IMG/VR virus record: IMGVR_UViG_2698536485_000016
Location: 1 to 22,503 of that record
DNA length: 22,503 nt
Strand: one strand, 5' to 3'
Source of the DNA: a virus
Lineage: Duplodnaviria > Heunggongvirae > Uroviricota > Caudoviricetes
The translations under genes were made by a program, and so were the position numbers. Each line of letters starts with the position of its first letter. Position 1 is the first letter of the stretch. The notes under the pieces are model-generated. The model did no database searches. It worked only from the letters and a program-made list of their open reading frames with translations, and was not told the DNA's origin. Of this stretch, positions 2,646-20,060 are shown one piece after another.

Positions 2646-2785
2646 CTGAATTTCACAGCGCATCTCACGCGCATATTAACGAGAGCCTTTCAGTAAGCGA
2701 GCCTGAGAAATTCCGTTATAGGTGGCGACCTCTCTCGGGCGGCTTTTCTGTGAGACAGGCTCACTTTCTAAAAGGTAAAGACGCT

Positions 2786-3304
2786 ATGAATCATCAATTG
2801 GCTAATCTCGATTTCCGGGACATGGTGGTTGTTTCTGGTGATCGCGTGATCACAACCTCCCGCAAGGTAGCAGCTTACTTCGACAAGCAGCATCACCACA
2901 TCATTCAGAAAATCGAAAAGCTAGACTGTTCGGATGAATTTCTAACCAGCAACTTTTCGCGGGTTACCTATGAACACAAGGGTAATCAGTATGTTGAATA
3001 TGAAATTTCCAAAGACGGCGCGATGTACATCATCATGTCGTTTACCGGCAAAAAAGCTGCCGCCATCAAAGAGGCGTTTATCAAAGCATTTAATTGGATG
3101 CGTGACAGGCTGATGGAGATGGCTCACTCATACCAAAGAGAGCACAACGAGTTAATGCTGGAGTTCATGAAGGAAAAGGATGTTGCCAGTATGTCAGGAC
3201 GCTTGCTGAACCGCTGGGGCAGGATCAAAAAACCGCAACTCATAGCAAGAATCGAAAGGCTTGAGCAGCAGGCGCAAATATCGATCCCCGGACTGCCAAA
3301 GTGA
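2786..3304 (+). CDS. Rha-family phage regulatory protein
   Basis: N-terminal segment VVVSGDRVITTSRKVAAYFDKQHHHIIQKIEKL and later MSFTGKKAAAIKEAFIKAFNWM fit the Rha domain pattern as I know it. ATG at 2786 preferred over the GTG at 2750 used by the ORF track. Confidence 0.75.
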   Translation: MNHQLANLDFRDMVVVSGDRVITTSRKVAAYFDKQHHHIIQKIEKLDCSDEFLTSNFSRVTYEHKGNQYVEYEISKDGAMYIIMSFTGKKAAAIKEAFIKAFNWMRDRLMEMAHSYQREHNELMLEFMKEKDVASMSGRLLNRWGRIKKPQLIARIERLEQQAQISIPGLPK

Positions 3305-14095: not shown

Positions 14096-15391
14096 ATGGC
14101 TACTTGGCAAGGAACAAACGGCGGATTGTTGGCTGGTATCGGCGGCGTCAACTCAAACGCTCCGAGCGTAAATGACATCGGCAATACGCTTCAGCTTATC
14201 AGGCAGAACAATGATATTGAGCGTTCAGGCGCTAACAATGTTGGGCTGACTGCTTTGCAAGGCCTTTCAGGTATTGCAGGGGTGTTTCAGCAGGAAAAGC
14301 AGGCTCAGCGGCAGAAAGAATTTCAGCAGGCGTACGCTAATGCTTATGCGTCTGGTGATCGCGGTGCTTTGCGTCAGTTGGCTACTCAATATCCAGACCA
14401 GATTGAATCCGTTCGTAAAGGCATGGGATTCATTGATGAAGACCAGCGTAATTCTATCGGCACCTTAGCGGCTGGTGCACGCCTTGCGTCATCGTCTCCA
14501 GAAGCAATGCAATCATGGCTGCAAAACAACGCCAAGGAACTGACTCGCGTCGGTGTTGACCCTAACAGCGTTGCTCAGATGTATCAGCAGAACCCTTCAG
14601 GATTTGGTGAGTTTGTTGATCACCTTGGAATGACCGCGCTTGGTCCGATTGATTACTTCAATGTTCAGGACAAGATGGCTGGTCGTGAGATTGACCGAGG
14701 CAGGCTGGCAGAGACAATCCGCAGCAATCAGGCCGGAGAAGCACTAACAGCTCGAGGTCAGGACATCCAGATACGTGGACAGAACATCAGCGCACAGAAT
14801 GCTGCTCTTTCCCGCGAAATACAAAGAGCAGAATTACAAGAAAAGGCTCTGGACAGACAGATAGCCAGAGAAAGCAATCAGTTAAAGCTTGAAGAGCTAA
14901 AACAGAAACAGGCAGATGTTAGGCAAAAGGCTGACATAGCCCGCGCTGACAGGCAGGCCGCCGCTCAGGGTGCAGTTGATACGTTCAGCACCGCGCTTGA
15001 TTCTCTCAACGAGATAGAGCAAAGCCCCGGCCTTTCAAAAGCAGTAGGAATTCGCTCAGCGTTTCCGACAGTTCCTGGCTCTGATGCGGCTAACTTTGAA
15101 GCAAGGCTCGACACCTTTAAAGCTCAAACATTCCTTCCTATGGTGCAGTCCCTTAAGGGGATGGGTGCTCTTTCAGATGCTGAGGGTAAAAAATTATCCG
15201 ATGCGGTTGGTGCCCTAAGCCCCAAAATGAGTGAAAAGGCTTTTCGTGACTCTATCGGAAAGATTAGAAATCAGCTTGAAAGCAAGTTGAGCACTGTTAA
15301 AAAACAGTTTGATTATCAGGAGCCGGTTCAGAATATGCCAGGGCAACAATCTACTACTGGCAGTAACTTTTCTTCACTATGGGGTGATTAA
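14096..15391 (+). CDS. Ejection (DNA-transfer) protein, P22 gp20-like
   Basis: 431-aa ORF, second of three consecutive internal virion protein genes; Gln-rich with coiled-coil-like stretch. Confidence 0.7.
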   Translation: MATWQGTNGGLLAGIGGVNSNAPSVNDIGNTLQLIRQNNDIERSGANNVGLTALQGLSGIAGVFQQEKQAQRQKEFQQAYANAYASGDRGALRQLATQYPDQIESVRKGMGFIDEDQRNSIGTLAAGARLASSSPEAMQSWLQNNAKELTRVGVDPNSVAQMYQQNPSGFGEFVDHLGMTALGPIDYFNVQDKMAGREIDRGRLAETIRSNQAGEALTARGQDIQIRGQNISAQNAALSREIQRAELQEKALDRQIARESNQLKLEELKQKQADVRQKADIARADRQAAAQGAVDTFSTALDSLNEIEQSPGLSKAVGIRSAFPTVPGSDAANFEARLDTFKAQTFLPMVQSLKGMGALSDAEGKKLSDAVGALSPKMSEKAFRDSIGKIRNQLESKLSTVKKQFDYQEPVQNMPGQQSTTGSNFSSLWGD

Positions 15392-17388
15392 TGGCTAAAG
15401 CATGGAAAGATGTTATCGCCTCTCCACAGTATCAGGCGTTAGCACCAGAACAAAAAGCGCAGGCTCAGGAGCAATACTTCAATGAAGTCGTGGCCCCGCA
15501 AGCCGGAGAAAATGCAGAGCAGGCTAAGCAAGCTTTCTATGCTGCCTATCCATTGCCATCTGTGCAGCAAGTGGAGACACAGCAACCAGTTGCACAGCAA
15601 CAACCACAGCAAAGTGGATTTATGTCTGATCTTGGCGAAGCAGTAAAAGAGACTGGTCGCGGACTGGTGCAGGCTGGCGTGAACGTGGCAAACATACCTG
15701 CATCAGTTGCCGATGCTGTAACAAGCGCGGCGGCTTGGGCTGGCGGTAAACTCGGCATTGGCGATGGTACATATCAACCAGCGCCACGAGTAACAACGCA
15801 GGGATTAGAGCAGGACTTTGGCCTTCGGCAAGGTGCGCTGACTCCACAAACGACAGAGGGAAGGGTATTTGCTGAAGCATTGCCTTACCTCACACCTGCT
15901 GGCGTTGAGAGAGCGGCGGTACAGGCACCAACACTTGCTGGTCGAATTGCTCAGGGGGCAACTCGCCTTCTAGCAGAAAACGCAGTTGGATCACTTGCTG
16001 CAAATAGTGCGAAAGATGATGCGGAAGCACTCGCCACCGATTTAGGCGTTGGTGTACTTGCTGGCGGTGCTATTAACGCTGCTGGACGTGGATTAGGTGC
16101 TGCTTATCGTGGCGTTCGTGGTGCTATCACGCCAGAAGCGCAGCAGGCTATCAGATTTGCAGAGCGTGAAGGAGTTCCTCTGCACACCACAGACCTGTTA
16201 CAACCCACTTCCCGCGTCGGAAAAATGGCGCAGACTACAGCAGAAAATATCCCTCTGGCTGGCACAAGCGGAATGAGAGCAACGCAACAGGAAGCGAGAA
16301 GCCAGTTGGTGCAGAGATTTGCTGATAAATTTGGTGAGTATGATCCAGCGGTTGTTATTGACAGCCTTAAAGCGAAAACATCAGGAATTCGTCGTGCTGC
16401 CGGTAATCGACTGGAGCAGGTTCAGAATGCTATGGCTGGAGTAAACATTCAACCTGCGCGAGCAATTCAGCAGATTGATACAGAAATATCTAACCTGCAG
16501 AAGCTTGGTAAGGTTGCTGATAACGAGACTATTTCAAAACTTCAGTCATATCGTGATGAGCTTGTTCGCAATGCTGGTCCTGATGGTCCGGTCAATCTGG
16601 ATTTGAAGCAATTAAGCGATCTGCGCAGCCAGTTCAGAATGGACGTGAAGGGTGAGCGACCAGTGTTACCAAACCGTTCCGATGCTGCCATTCAGCGAGT
16701 TTACAAGGCGATGACCGACGATATCAATGGTGCCATTGGTCAGAATCTTGGCAATGATACTCTTCGTAAATATCAGCAGGCCAATGCCGTCTACGCTGAC
16801 GAAGCGGCGAAACTAAAGAATACCAGGCTGAAGAATGTTCTCATGAAAGGCGACCTGACGCCGGAAGTTGTCAACAACATGCTATTCAGCAAGAACAAAT
16901 CGGAAATTAAGACTCTGTATAACTCAGTTGGTCGTGTTGGCAGGGCGCAAATGCGCAATGGCATCATTGGAAAGGCGATGGAGAAATCAGGTGGTTCCCC
17001 TGACCAGTTCCTTCGGCAACTTAACATCCTGCAAAACCAGACTGGCATCACATTTAAAGGTCAGGAAGCCGCTTATCTGAAAGGATTGAAAAACTACCTG
17101 CAATCCACGCAACAGGCTGCAAAAGCAGCAGTAACAACACCAACAGGGCAGCAAACCATCCCGTTCATTATCGGATATGGGACGGCAATGAACCCGGCGA
17201 CAACTGGCGCAGCGGTAAGCTACGGACTTCTTACTCGCGCCTATGAGAGCGAGCCATTCAGAAATGCAATGCTCCGAATGGCAAACACCCCACGCGGATC
17301 AACAGCGTTTGAGAAAGCCATGCAGCAGGCGCAAAAGGCCATTAACGCCATTACTCAGGGGGCTAAGTCTGATGCGTTGTCAGAATAG
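15391..17388 (+). CDS. Ejection (DNA-transfer) protein, P22 gp16-like
   Basis: 665-aa ORF, third ejection-protein gene, start overlapping the upstream stop (TAATG); Gln-rich N-terminal region. Confidence 0.7.
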   Translation: MAKAWKDVIASPQYQALAPEQKAQAQEQYFNEVVAPQAGENAEQAKQAFYAAYPLPSVQQVETQQPVAQQQPQQSGFMSDLGEAVKETGRGLVQAGVNVANIPASVADAVTSAAAWAGGKLGIGDGTYQPAPRVTTQGLEQDFGLRQGALTPQTTEGRVFAEALPYLTPAGVERAAVQAPTLAGRIAQGATRLLAENAVGSLAANSAKDDAEALATDLGVGVLAGGAINAAGRGLGAAYRGVRGAITPEAQQAIRFAEREGVPLHTTDLLQPTSRVGKMAQTTAENIPLAGTSGMRATQQEARSQLVQRFADKFGEYDPAVVIDSLKAKTSGIRRAAGNRLEQVQNAMAGVNIQPARAIQQIDTEISNLQKLGKVADNETISKLQSYRDELVRNAGPDGPVNLDLKQLSDLRSQFRMDVKGERPVLPNRSDAAIQRVYKAMTDDINGAIGQNLGNDTLRKYQQANAVYADEAAKLKNTRLKNVLMKGDLTPEVVNNMLFSKNKSEIKTLYNSVGRVGRAQMRNGIIGKAMEKSGGSPDQFLRQLNILQNQTGITFKGQEAAYLKGLKNYLQSTQQAAKAAVTTPTGQQTIPFIIGYGTAMNPATTGAAVSYGLLTRAYESEPFRNAMLRMANTPRGSTAFEKAMQQAQKAINAITQGAKSDALSE

Positions 17389-17477
17389 CTTCGCAAACAC
17401 CAGGAACGTGCAAAAACCAAATATGTAGAACGCAATATTCAGCATATCTCTGTGCATAAATCCTCCGTAACGGATGG

Positions 17478-17738
17478 TTATCTGCTGTCTTTTTTATATA
17501 GCTTCTTGAGCGTATCAAAGACAATTTTCTTAACCATATCAGATTGTTGTTCTGCCATACGCTCTGCATCGTCAATGTAAACTGATGCAGAGCTTTGTTT
17601 ATCCAATGATTCCTCAATCGCTGCAATTATCTCTGAGTTCAGCGACCTGTTATTCATCTTCGCACGCTGCTTAATTTTCGCGTGGAGTTCATGCGGAAGT
17701 CTCAAGTGAAACTGCGCCTCGTCGTATTTGCTGTACAT
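17478..17738 (-). CDS. mnt: Mnt-like repressor (ribbon-helix-helix, Arc/MetJ superfamily)
   Basis: Translation (FHLRLPHELHAKIKQRAKMNNRSLNSEII...DAERMAEQQSDMVKKIVFDTLKKLYKK) aligns along its length with P22 Mnt as I remember it. ATG at 17738 chosen (SD GGTGAGG upstream); an upstream ATG at 17771 is possible. Confidence 0.8.
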   Translation of the reverse strand: MYSKYDEAQFHLRLPHELHAKIKQRAKMNNRSLNSEIIAAIEESLDKQSSASVYIDDAERMAEQQSDMVKKIVFDTLKKLYKKDSR

Positions 17739-17869
17739 CCTTGATGCCTCACCAGTTGGGTGGAATGGCATCGTAACCTACTGGATAAATACTCAATAAT
17801 ACCATTTTGGTATGCAATCACATCATGGTTGCATCATATCATTCGTCTGGAGCAATGAAATGTCAGATA

Positions 17870-18370
17870 TCACCTACTCAACAGATGGTCAGCAACCATG
17901 TTTGCTGCCTTATAAGCTATAGCAGCTTCATCAATGGTGTTGAATCTCCCAAGGGTTATGTTTTTACCTGAGACATTTATCTGAGCTTGCCATTGATTTC
18001 TGGCTTGACAGAAAGTTACCCCCTTGATCCCAGCATTGCTATTTCGAGGTCCGACATTTAATGCATTTACGACTCTGCTGACATCCCTAAGGTTTGAGAT
18101 TGCGTTATTTCTTCTGTTTCTATCAATGTGGTCAATCTCTTGTTTGGGCCATTCGCCATATACATACAGCCAGGCAAGTCTATGTGCAAAATATCTTACG
18201 CCATCAATATTAATTGCGTTATATCCATAAGAAATTGTGCCAGCAACTTTCCCAACAGCACCTCTGGCGCTTAATTTCTTTTTCCAAGTGAAAATTCCTG
18301 TTTCTTTATTGTAATCGAGAACCTCCATAAGGCGCTCCCGAGTTACTACCTCGTGACGTCTCTTACTCAT
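17870..18370 (-). CDS. HNH endonuclease with C-terminal AP2-type DNA-binding domain (homing-endonuclease-like)
   Basis: HNH_3-like motif ([38 protein letters not shown]) followed by an AP2-like segment (GIKGVTF...WQAQI...[22 protein letters not shown]). ATG at 18370 with strong SD (GGAG, 6-nt spacer) chosen over the TTG start at 18412 in the ORF track. Confidence 0.85.
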
Positions 18371-18392
18371 TATTTTCTCCGGAATGTTTATT

Positions 18393-20060
18393 ATGCCAGA
18401 ACAATTATACAACGTTGTTGTTTCACAACCAAGTCAGTTATTTACTTTAGCTCGCTCGTTTAAAGCAAATGCCAATGGCAAAATTTATATCGGAAAAATT
18501 GACACTGATCCGGTAAATCCTGAAAACCAGATCCAGGTTTATGTGGAGAATGAAGACGGCTCTCACGTTCCTGTTTCGCAACCAATCATCATTAACGCTG
18601 CTGGTTACCCTGTATATAACGGACAGATTGCCAAGTTTGTAACCGTGCAAGGCCATTCTATGGCTGTTTATGATGCGTACGGCGCGCAGCAGTTTTATTT
18701 TCCGAATGTACTGAAGTACGACCCGGATCAGCTTGAGCAGCGTCTTGCATCATCAATAGGTTCTTCCATGGTTGGCATTACCGATGGAAGGACAGTGCAT
18801 GATTTTATATCTGTTGATGACTATCAGAGAATTGGTGATATCCGTGGTTACGGGGCGACAAATGAAAACGTAAACCCTGTCAACATTGCCGTTGCCACAG
18901 GTGAGGCCAATGGTCTACTGAAGGTGCCTAATGGAGTATGGAGCGGTAATTTTGAGTTAAAAAATAAAACTAGCATAACTGGTGAATCCATAACATCAAC
19001 AGTTGTTAACGTTCCTATAAACACGATCGGAATAAAGCCTGAGGGCTCTGACGTTAGAGGGATTACTATATCAAACATGAATCTCCAAGTTAACGGATCT
19101 GTTGCTGGCGGTCCTCCTGTTGGTAGCGGGGTCGGAATAGACATGTCTTTTTGCGGAAAGGCAGTTAACTGTGAGTTTAACAACCTTTATCTCGATTTCT
19201 TTGATATTGGTTACAACGCTGGATATGCTGATTTTTCAAATATTTATAACAATATGAGGTGCAATAACAACCGAATCGGGATTAACCTATCCAGTAACGG
19301 AACAATTATTCAAAACGTGTTCAATGGGTGTTATGTTGCAAACTGGACGGCTTATGCCGTGAAAGTTTCTGGCGCTAGCAACCAGATATTCAACGCGCTT
19401 AACATGGGGCATAACGGATCCGCCAATGCTTATTTCCTGCAGATAGATACGAACTCAAGAGGAATCATATTTAATCAACCTAACTTCGAAATGGACGTTG
19501 CAAACGGGAAAATTACAGCAGGAGGCCAGGCTATCGTGGTCGCCTCTAGTTCTGAGGTTACATTTAACTCCCCGACATTCAACAGGGTTAACGCTGCAGG
19601 GGCAAATGCCTACCTGTTCCGGGTTAGGGGTAACGCTGTAGTACGTATAAACGACCCTCAAATCTACAACGACGATGGCACAATAGGTCACCTAATTATC
19701 AGTGATGAAGCTGTTGTTTATCTCAATGATCCAAATCGAATATTCACAGTAATTACTATCCAAGGTAATGGGAGGCTAATACGTGTTGACGAGAAGATAT
19801 CAAACTCCCCTAACTATACAAACATTCTTACTTTAAAATCTGGAGACATAATTAACTTTGGATTCTATGCAAGATATGCAATGGCGGTTCCAGATTTTCA
19901 CTCCAATACTATGCCATCACCATTCAAGTACGCAGTGAACTTTGACACTTACCATAGCAGTGGAACTGCCATTGCTCGAGTGTATGATACAACTACAGGA
20001 AATGGAGTATCAAACATCAATGTTACATGTTTCGTACAGGCGTGGAGAGAGGATAGATAA
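18393..20060 (+). CDS. Tailspike protein: conserved P22-type head-binding N-domain plus divergent parallel beta-helix receptor-binding domain
   Basis: N-terminal ~115 aa ([53 protein letters not shown]...) match the P22/Sf6 tailspike particle-binding domain; the remainder is Asn/Gly/Val/Ile-rich repeats typical of a beta-helix. Start could be 18384 or 18393. Confidence 0.85.

Follow-up and report, generated by a model that had tools for sequence, protein, structure and literature searches.

A stand-alone mnt repressor gene with a predicted operator in the late region of a P22-like phage

Ant morons and the locus compared with P22 immI

The interval between genes 16 and 9 of P22-like phages was named the 'ant moron' by Villafane et al. 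in 2008, and ant morons that contain mnt only have been described since at least that year (PMC2629481). The same authors suggested a possible influence of the ant moron and its repressors on read-through into the tailspike gene (PMC2629481). In phage L, whether the orphan mnt has a new function or is a remnant has been raised as a question (PMC8022706). Phages ST64T, ST104, L, ST160, SE1 and vB_EcoP-720R6 likewise carry mnt without arc or ant, directly divergent from the tailspike gene.

The DNA analyzed here is a stretch of 22,503 nucleotides (IMG/VR record IMGVR_UViG_2698536485_000016), called the window below. It comes from an Sf6/HK620-like Lederbergvirus, a P22-like phage, and covers the late region, with genes that run from lysis through head, ejection and tailspike functions to an O-antigen acyltransferase and an integrase. 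The mnt locus of the window resembles P22 immI (mnt-Omnt/Pmnt/Pant-arc-sar-ant) in its two-domain Mnt, in the gene 16 and gene 9 homologues that flank it and in the distance from the operator to TTGAGx. In contrast with P22, however, arc, sar and ant are missing, and the hexamers equivalent to Pant are degenerate (ATGGCA-N15-TAAATA). The features discussed in the text are the following:

15391..17388, plus strand: gp16-like DNA ejection protein, an ORF that is the final gene of the contiguous late block and is convergent with mnt
17478..17738, minus strand: mnt, encoding an 86-aa Mnt-family repressor (tblastn, Pfam and PDB matches)
17747..17750, minus strand: GAGG, predicted Shine-Dalgarno of mnt, read from the sequence, 8 nt upstream of the ATG at 17738
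17770..17796, minus strand: candidate Pmnt, with -35 TTGAGT (17796-17791), a 15-bp spacer and -10 TACGAT (17775-17770)
17799..17813: predicted Mnt operator (Omnt homologue), ATACCAttTTGGTAT, assigned by positional homology with P22, covariation and a conserved core
17812..17834, plus strand: predicted hairpin of the tailspike 5' leader, with a 9-bp stem (17812-17820 paired with 17826-17834)
17848..17874, plus strand: relic tailspike ribosome binding site (TGGAG) and first five codons (ATGTCAGATATCACC, MSDIT), matching uninterrupted tailspike starts
17870..18370 (or 18412), minus strand: free-standing HNH endonuclease gene (HNH_3 and AP2, by Pfam)
about 17875-18392: HNH cassette of about 0.5 kb, inserted after tailspike codon 5
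18393..20060, plus strand: tailspike gene with a 5' end supplied by the cassette (MPEQLY...); Head_binding, PF09008, E 3.4e-64

An earlier note on this DNA had described mnt as convergent with the last ejection-protein gene, and the coordinates agree with that description. Relatives of the ejection-protein gene are annotated as DNA transfer or lytic transglycosylase proteins. A gap of 89 bp separates it from mnt, and folding of this gap on both strands yielded no terminator-like structure (z-scores 0.2 and 0.7).

The same note had reported that no Arc or Ant ORF accompanies mnt, and this holds for the 22.5-kb window: neither protein was found by tblastn with P22 and Kapi1 Arc and Ant, and of all 526 six-frame segments of the window, the mnt ORF alone was hit by an RHH profile (E 2.9e-25; next best E ~2). 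Both arc and ant are also absent from the complete genome of Sf101, which bears the same mnt allele. What a complete P22-type immI has and this locus lacks is a divergent arc-ant operon under a Pant with overlapping Omnt, together with the sar region; the tailspike leader lies directly after the operator.

Between the lysis and terminase genes, at 2750-3304, the window encodes a protein with Rha and ORF11CD3 domains. This protein was considered as an alternative antirepressor target and discarded, as it is the standard rha of P22-like phages and no operator motif lies nearby.

The mnt gene, its predicted operator and its promoter

Over 80 residues, the mnt product shares 48.8% identity with P22 Mnt (tblastn E 7e-20), and its N-terminus is two residues longer. 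Pfam assigns residues 7-49, the RHH domain, to Arc (PF03869, E 7.5e-15) and residues 57-82, the tetramerisation helix, to Repressor_Mnt (PF11423, E 8.9e-15). The top PDB matches, 1MNT (E 7.6e-19) and 1QEY (E 4.4e-8), are solved fragments of P22 Mnt. Four traits of the Mnt family are found together: a predicted Arc-like N-terminal RHH, a predicted C-terminal Mnt tetramerisation helix, a place in a P22-like late operon where homologues of genes 16 and 9 flank mnt and transcription of mnt runs against the operon, and a symmetric predicted operator, supported by comparison, just upstream of the -35 of its own promoter. The earlier reading of the ORF as a clear Mnt homologue is confirmed, and its sequence identifies mnt as an authentic phage repressor gene of the Mnt type, with a predicted operator and without arc and ant.

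The mechanical ORF around mnt extends from 17478 to 17771 on the minus strand (97 aa). Translation is, however, likely to start at the ATG at 17738, and almost certainly does so, giving 86 aa: the GAGG Shine-Dalgarno, which is conserved in all alleles compared, the usage in RefSeq (WP_000287053.1, from strain VE-T9, is the same 86-aa protein) and the alignment with the P22 start all favor this codon. An alternative ATG at 17769-17771 falls within the predicted -10 hexamer. In Sf101, gp14 (locus L003, 3009-3302) is annotated with the 97-aa start and as 'partition protein ATPase'. The latter name is also found on several Salmonella phage mnt genes, and appears to be a propagated misannotation.

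When selection on mnt was estimated from 86 loci (66 distinct coding sequences), a pN/pS of 0.22 was obtained, and 85 of the 86 copies were devoid of internal stops. By this measure, mnt is under purifying selection.

Two inverted repeats in the gap upstream of mnt had been proposed as candidate operators, and both lie where the earlier note had placed them (17799-17813 and 17812-17834). Their mere existence falls within chance for this AT-rich gap of 98 bp: among its shuffles, 26% contained one or more perfect repeats with 6-bp arms, and 8.9% contained two or more. The significance of the repeats must hence come from comparative evidence, and the two repeats fare differently in this respect.

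The proposal that ataccattttggtat is a candidate Mnt operator is borne out by its spacing to TATTGAG, as in P22 Omnt, and by covariation with the beta-strand of Mnt. Alignment with P22 Mnt and its operator, a check that the earlier note had proposed, finds the proteins homologous and, when the mnt upstream regions are aligned, puts the palindrome in the position of the annotated P22 Omnt relative to TATTGAG. In P22 and in the window alike, the palindrome centre is followed by nine bases and then by the TTGAGx of the -35 of Pmnt. The half-sites differ, being ATACC-N5-GGTAT in the window and AGGTCCAC-N-GTGGACCT in P22. The population consensus is ATACCGAAATGGTAC, and the perfect 6+3+6 palindrome of the window is a rare variant.

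Across Mnt alleles, the DNA-reading beta-strand covaries with the predicted operator:

PHFNFR: operator AGGTCCACnGTGGACCT
PQFNLR: operator AAGACCACnGTGGTCTT
EAQFHLR, Buttiauxella and Serratia included: operator (A/G)TACCnAAAnGGTAC
EPQINIR (Kapi1): operator TGGTATAACcGTTATACCA

The strand of the window has Q/H/R, versus H6/N8/R10 in P22. The P22 residues considered (Arg2, His6, Asn8 and Arg10) are those of work on Mnt by the Sauer laboratory. Of 153 distinct EAQFHLR-type loci, 147 retain an intact TACC-N5-GGTA core, and the operator varies only at positions +/-2 and +/-7, which are symmetric. The allele of the window is shared by Sf101 gp14, IME10 and WP_000287053.1 (96-100% identity), as are its operator and leader; in Sf101 and IME10 the HNH insertion is lacking and the tailspike gene comes directly after mnt. 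The Mnt proteins of ST64T, ST104, L, ST160, SE1 and 720R6, in contrast, represent a different allele (57-59% identity) of the PQFNLR type, paired with AAGACCACnGTGGTCTT.

The operator motif has a single occurrence in the window and likewise in the complete Sf101 genome, so that no second cis target is seen. The earlier suggestion that Mnt regulates a different target finds no support: what the upstream gap holds is best described as the ancestral Omnt/Pmnt, still in place. A scan of IMG/VR for trans targets with the pattern CATACCNAAANGGTAC was also discarded, as 85 of the matches, among at least 124 listed, were unrelated chance matches. One chance match involves an element of about 50 bp (GGCTGTATATACATACCGAAACGGTACACAAC...ACAGCCATG) in an unrelated phage type (locus L341, 7579-8109), where two copies 515 bp apart lie upstream of two small paralogous genes adjoining the terminase gene. 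The repeated element also occurs in loci L348, L386, L402 and L439, and in none of these five loci was an RHH of the EAQFHLR type found near it.

The candidate Pmnt aligns with the annotated Pmnt of P22 (TTGAGA-N17-TATCAT), and in sister alleles its equivalent has a 17-bp spacer. A scan for sigma-70 promoters and terminators between 17300 and 18500 gave two promoter-like sites, against 2.7 expected from shuffled sequence, and no terminator; the candidate Pmnt was not called by this consensus scan on account of its short, suboptimal 15-bp spacer. Two alternative leftward promoters can be drawn in the mnt upstream region, and Pmnt is an assignment that we infer from homology with P22 only.

The HNH cassette and the tailspike leader

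The earlier note had pointed out an HNH endonuclease gene as the upstream neighbour of mnt on the same strand, across the intergenic region 17739-17869. Position and strand are right, but the relevance to mnt that one might read into them is not, because the gene belongs to a cassette inserted in the 5' end of the tailspike gene: the HNH gene seems a neighbour of mnt as a consequence of insertion after tailspike codon 5. The sequence ATGTCAGATATCACC at 17860-17874 is the uninterrupted tailspike start in Sf101, locus L089 and others. Phage Kapi1 carries the same HNH cassette after tailspike codon 5, and its cassette-tailspike junction is 98.7% identical to that of the window. Kapi1 is viable, and its insertion, at the equivalent codon, lies in a P22-type leader downstream of ant. 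Unlike the window, Kapi1 has a complete mnt-arc-ant in an immI-HNH-tailspike order; its Mnt is 36% identical and is associated with operator TGGTATAACcGTTATACCA. No mention of mnt or HNH is made in the Kapi1 and Sf101 papers.

The product of the HNH gene combines an HNH nuclease domain (HNH_3, E 2.1e-16) with a probable accessory DNA-binding domain (AP2, E 3.6e-6, under the gathering score). Genomes that are otherwise collinear differ in whether the cassette is present at this precise site; the insertions are found in two leader types and belong to two HNH lineages, the second of which (42% identity) occupies the same tailspike site in other loci. Only 14 of 147 loci with an EAQFHLR-type mnt contain an HNH gene. 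Judged by these features, the HNH gene is a mobile cassette for a predicted endonuclease, with no functional link to mnt, and the pattern at its site resembles site-specific homing, with the start of the conserved head-binding domain as target.

Among complete genomes, the only locus that spans the whole 1151-bp mnt-HNH-tailspike query (98.2%) is that of E. coli VE-T9 (L004, 16364-25392). This locus is a truncated prophage remnant that extends from ejection genes as far as intS at argW, with IS30 and IS3 at its borders.

The second inverted repeat, atgcaa-N11-ttgcat, had also been proposed as an operator, a view that was not borne out: the repeat is part of the tailspike-leader module, and its changes preserve RNA pairing. 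When the tailspike-sense RNA is folded, the repeat extends to a 9-bp stem. Across 16 distinct variants, 97.9% of the cells in the pair counts pair, while the loop is freely variable. One compensatory change, GC to UA, was detected, and eleven one-sided changes are wobble-compatible and remain paired. For most changes, G-U wobbles (CG to UG; UG to UA or CG) keep the pairing in the tailspike-sense strand but not in the other. The pairing score was reached by 6 of 500 shuffles. Folded by itself, the tailspike leader had a z-score of -1.1, which is not significant, so that the signal comes only from the comparative pair counts. On this modest evidence, we take the 17812-17834 repeat for an RNA element of the late or tailspike message rather than for a Mnt site.

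In the other leader type, which includes that of P22, a different hairpin (CCGTAGC-CAY-GCTGCGG) is found at the equivalent place; locus L250 contains an example (2868-2940). In P22 this hairpin occurs twice, just past the ant terminator and ahead of gene 9.

Directly right of the operator, at 17814-17817, lies a recurrent mosaic breakpoint: in many E. coli prophages the shared sequence covers mnt and the operator and ends here, giving way to another leader and tailspike module. Hence, mnt and its operator behave like one module, and the tailspike leader like another.

Distribution, origin and possible role of the mnt cassette

The mnt-operator segment is present in 291 of 5,426 complete E. coli genomes (~5%), and all the loci opened in these genomes were mnt-only. 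The cassette is a widespread conserved module in P22-like prophages of E. coli, Shigella and Salmonella, and an mnt-only layout is also found with other Mnt alleles (ST160, SE1, 720R6 and VSe13). The arrangement is not special: P22-like prophages of E. coli and Shigella frequently carry a stand-alone mnt, and cases such as ST64T, ST104 and phage L have already been published, which makes the finding largely ordinary.

For a closer view of the neighbourhood, loci were sampled as the best 80 hits per search. About 153-154 distinct loci have the recognition strand D-E-A-Q-F-H-L-R-L, and 147 could be classified by their upstream sequence. The divergent upstream neighbour is the tailspike gene in 131 of the 147, HNH followed by tailspike in 14, a truncated ant followed by tailspike in one and unrecognised in one; arc was the neighbour in none. 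The cassette abuts the tailspike gene, either directly or via the HNH insert, in 146 of the 147 informative loci. Conversely, none of the best 80 Ant-bearing loci has an EAQFHLR-type Mnt adjoining arc. Matches to the core motif in these 80 loci were dismissed as coincidental, since they lie inside arc or gp16 coding sequence. Altogether, an EAQFHLR-type Mnt and operator beside an intact arc-ant was not seen in 80 ant-bearing loci, 147 EAQFHLR-type loci and 130 phage records.

One locus, L307 (150-900), hints at how the layout may have come about. Here mnt and the operator are followed, across a short linker, by sequence for the last ~110 residues of Ant with the ant terminator, and then by the tailspike gene; the deletion removed arc and the 5' two-thirds of ant. 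This layout implies that an EAQFHLR-type Mnt once adjoined arc-ant, and it points to an origin of the mnt-only state by deletion of arc-ant, with L307 as an apparent intermediate. Two further observations concern loci with more than one mnt. In around 45 loci of a sister allele (VSe13-like), this mnt is kept beside the tailspike gene and a separate, complete mnt-arc-ant of another specificity lies to the left, and two or three mnt paralogues with recognition strands of different types are stacked in the single regions of L285, L208 and L267. At least eight types of recognition strand were found.

We consider it likely that 17478-17813 is a self-contained Mnt cassette (gene, ribosome binding site, promoter region and operator) which remains from an immI-type region. 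An ancestral region of this type would have lost arc, sar and ant, leaving the mnt cassette divergent from the tailspike gene. By analogy with P22, a Mnt tetramer would bind the operator (centre at 17806, ~43 bp ahead of the predicted Pmnt start), and the operator-bound protein would regulate its own promoter, again as in P22. No credible Pant-like promoter remains, and neither the window nor the Sf101 genome has a second operator; with Pant lost and without a second operator, the selected role would be exerted either in trans or on transcription that crosses the operator toward the tailspike gene. In the former case, Mnt would repress the matching Pant of incoming phages that carry an antirepressor. 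We weakly favor the role in trans over that in tailspike transcription. The hypervariable recognition strands and the stacked mnt genes are consistent with silencing of Pant in incoming antirepressor phages. The target of such immunity is nevertheless unseen, because no sampled locus pairs this Mnt and operator with an intact arc-ant. Silencing of Pant in superinfecting P22-like phages, as advanced in the earlier note, is therefore possible and as yet unsupported (0 of ~230 related loci with this Mnt and an intact arc-ant).

Three other explanations were weighed against the cassette reading. That the EAQFHLR-type Mnt is a dedicated tailspike-proximal regulator seems to us unlikely. Mnt bound at its operator, ~50 bp upstream of the tailspike start, and convergent transcription from Pmnt would limit the transcription that enters the gene, be it leaky or Pant read-through in lysogens or the dosage of the late transcript during growth; the suggestion of Villafane et al. 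on read-through (PMC2629481) goes in this direction. Adjacency in nearly all loci classified, including the ~45 that also carry a separate complete immI, and its persistence across several mosaic leader types speak for such a regulator. A simple deletion of arc-ant, however, would equally leave adjacency. Moreover, scan and manual inspection detected no rightward promoter at the operator, Kapi1 is viable without this type of mnt, and in the 14 loci with an HNH insertion and in L307 the cassette is kept although its operator lies 0.5 kb from the tailspike gene.

Decay of immI is a further explanation: mnt would be a functionless relic hitch-hiking with a tailspike module that is often exchanged. 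The loss of arc and ant, the degenerate look of Pant and the fact that the VE-T9 prophage is itself a remnant would fit, and the authors of the phage L study raised this possibility for the L gene (PMC8022706). The low pN/pS and the conserved operator argue against a decaying relic, and so do the near absence of interrupted copies, the retention of both Mnt domains and the persistence of the operator core as far as Buttiauxella and Serratia; we thus regard a relic as very improbable. Least credible of all, and hardly to be entertained, is the idea of mnt and HNH as one functional unit, whether through control of the endonuclease by Mnt or through co-transcription of the two. The two genes are on the same strand, 98 bp apart, and no terminator was detected between them, but HNH accompanies this type of mnt in fewer than one locus in ten, Kapi1 and four more loci with ant have its cassette but not this mnt, the cassette splits a tailspike start that can still be recognised, and the operator is downstream of HNH, away from the HNH promoter.

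Taking the self-contained cassette as the preferred reading, a broader and rather doubtful speculation is that the EAQFHLR-type Mnt, far from being a leftover, is a portable, single-gene anti-antirepressor immunity cassette, made up of the gene and an autoregulatory operator, that travels with tailspike modules and is stacked in the ant moron with Mnt genes of other specificities, in an arms race of prophages with superinfecting phages that carry antirepressors, or else a dedicated gatekeeper of tailspike transcription.

The main value of this analysis is one of clean-up: the arrangement is a known one, and its allele is carried by about one in twenty complete E. coli genomes. The correspondence between alleles and operators provides a small natural data set on the recognition specificity of RHH proteins. 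Finally, orphan mnt genes are not decaying, as they keep allele-specific predicted operators and are under purifying selection. With an orphan mnt that is maintained, the question raised in the phage L paper, namely new function versus remnant, becomes experimentally approachable.
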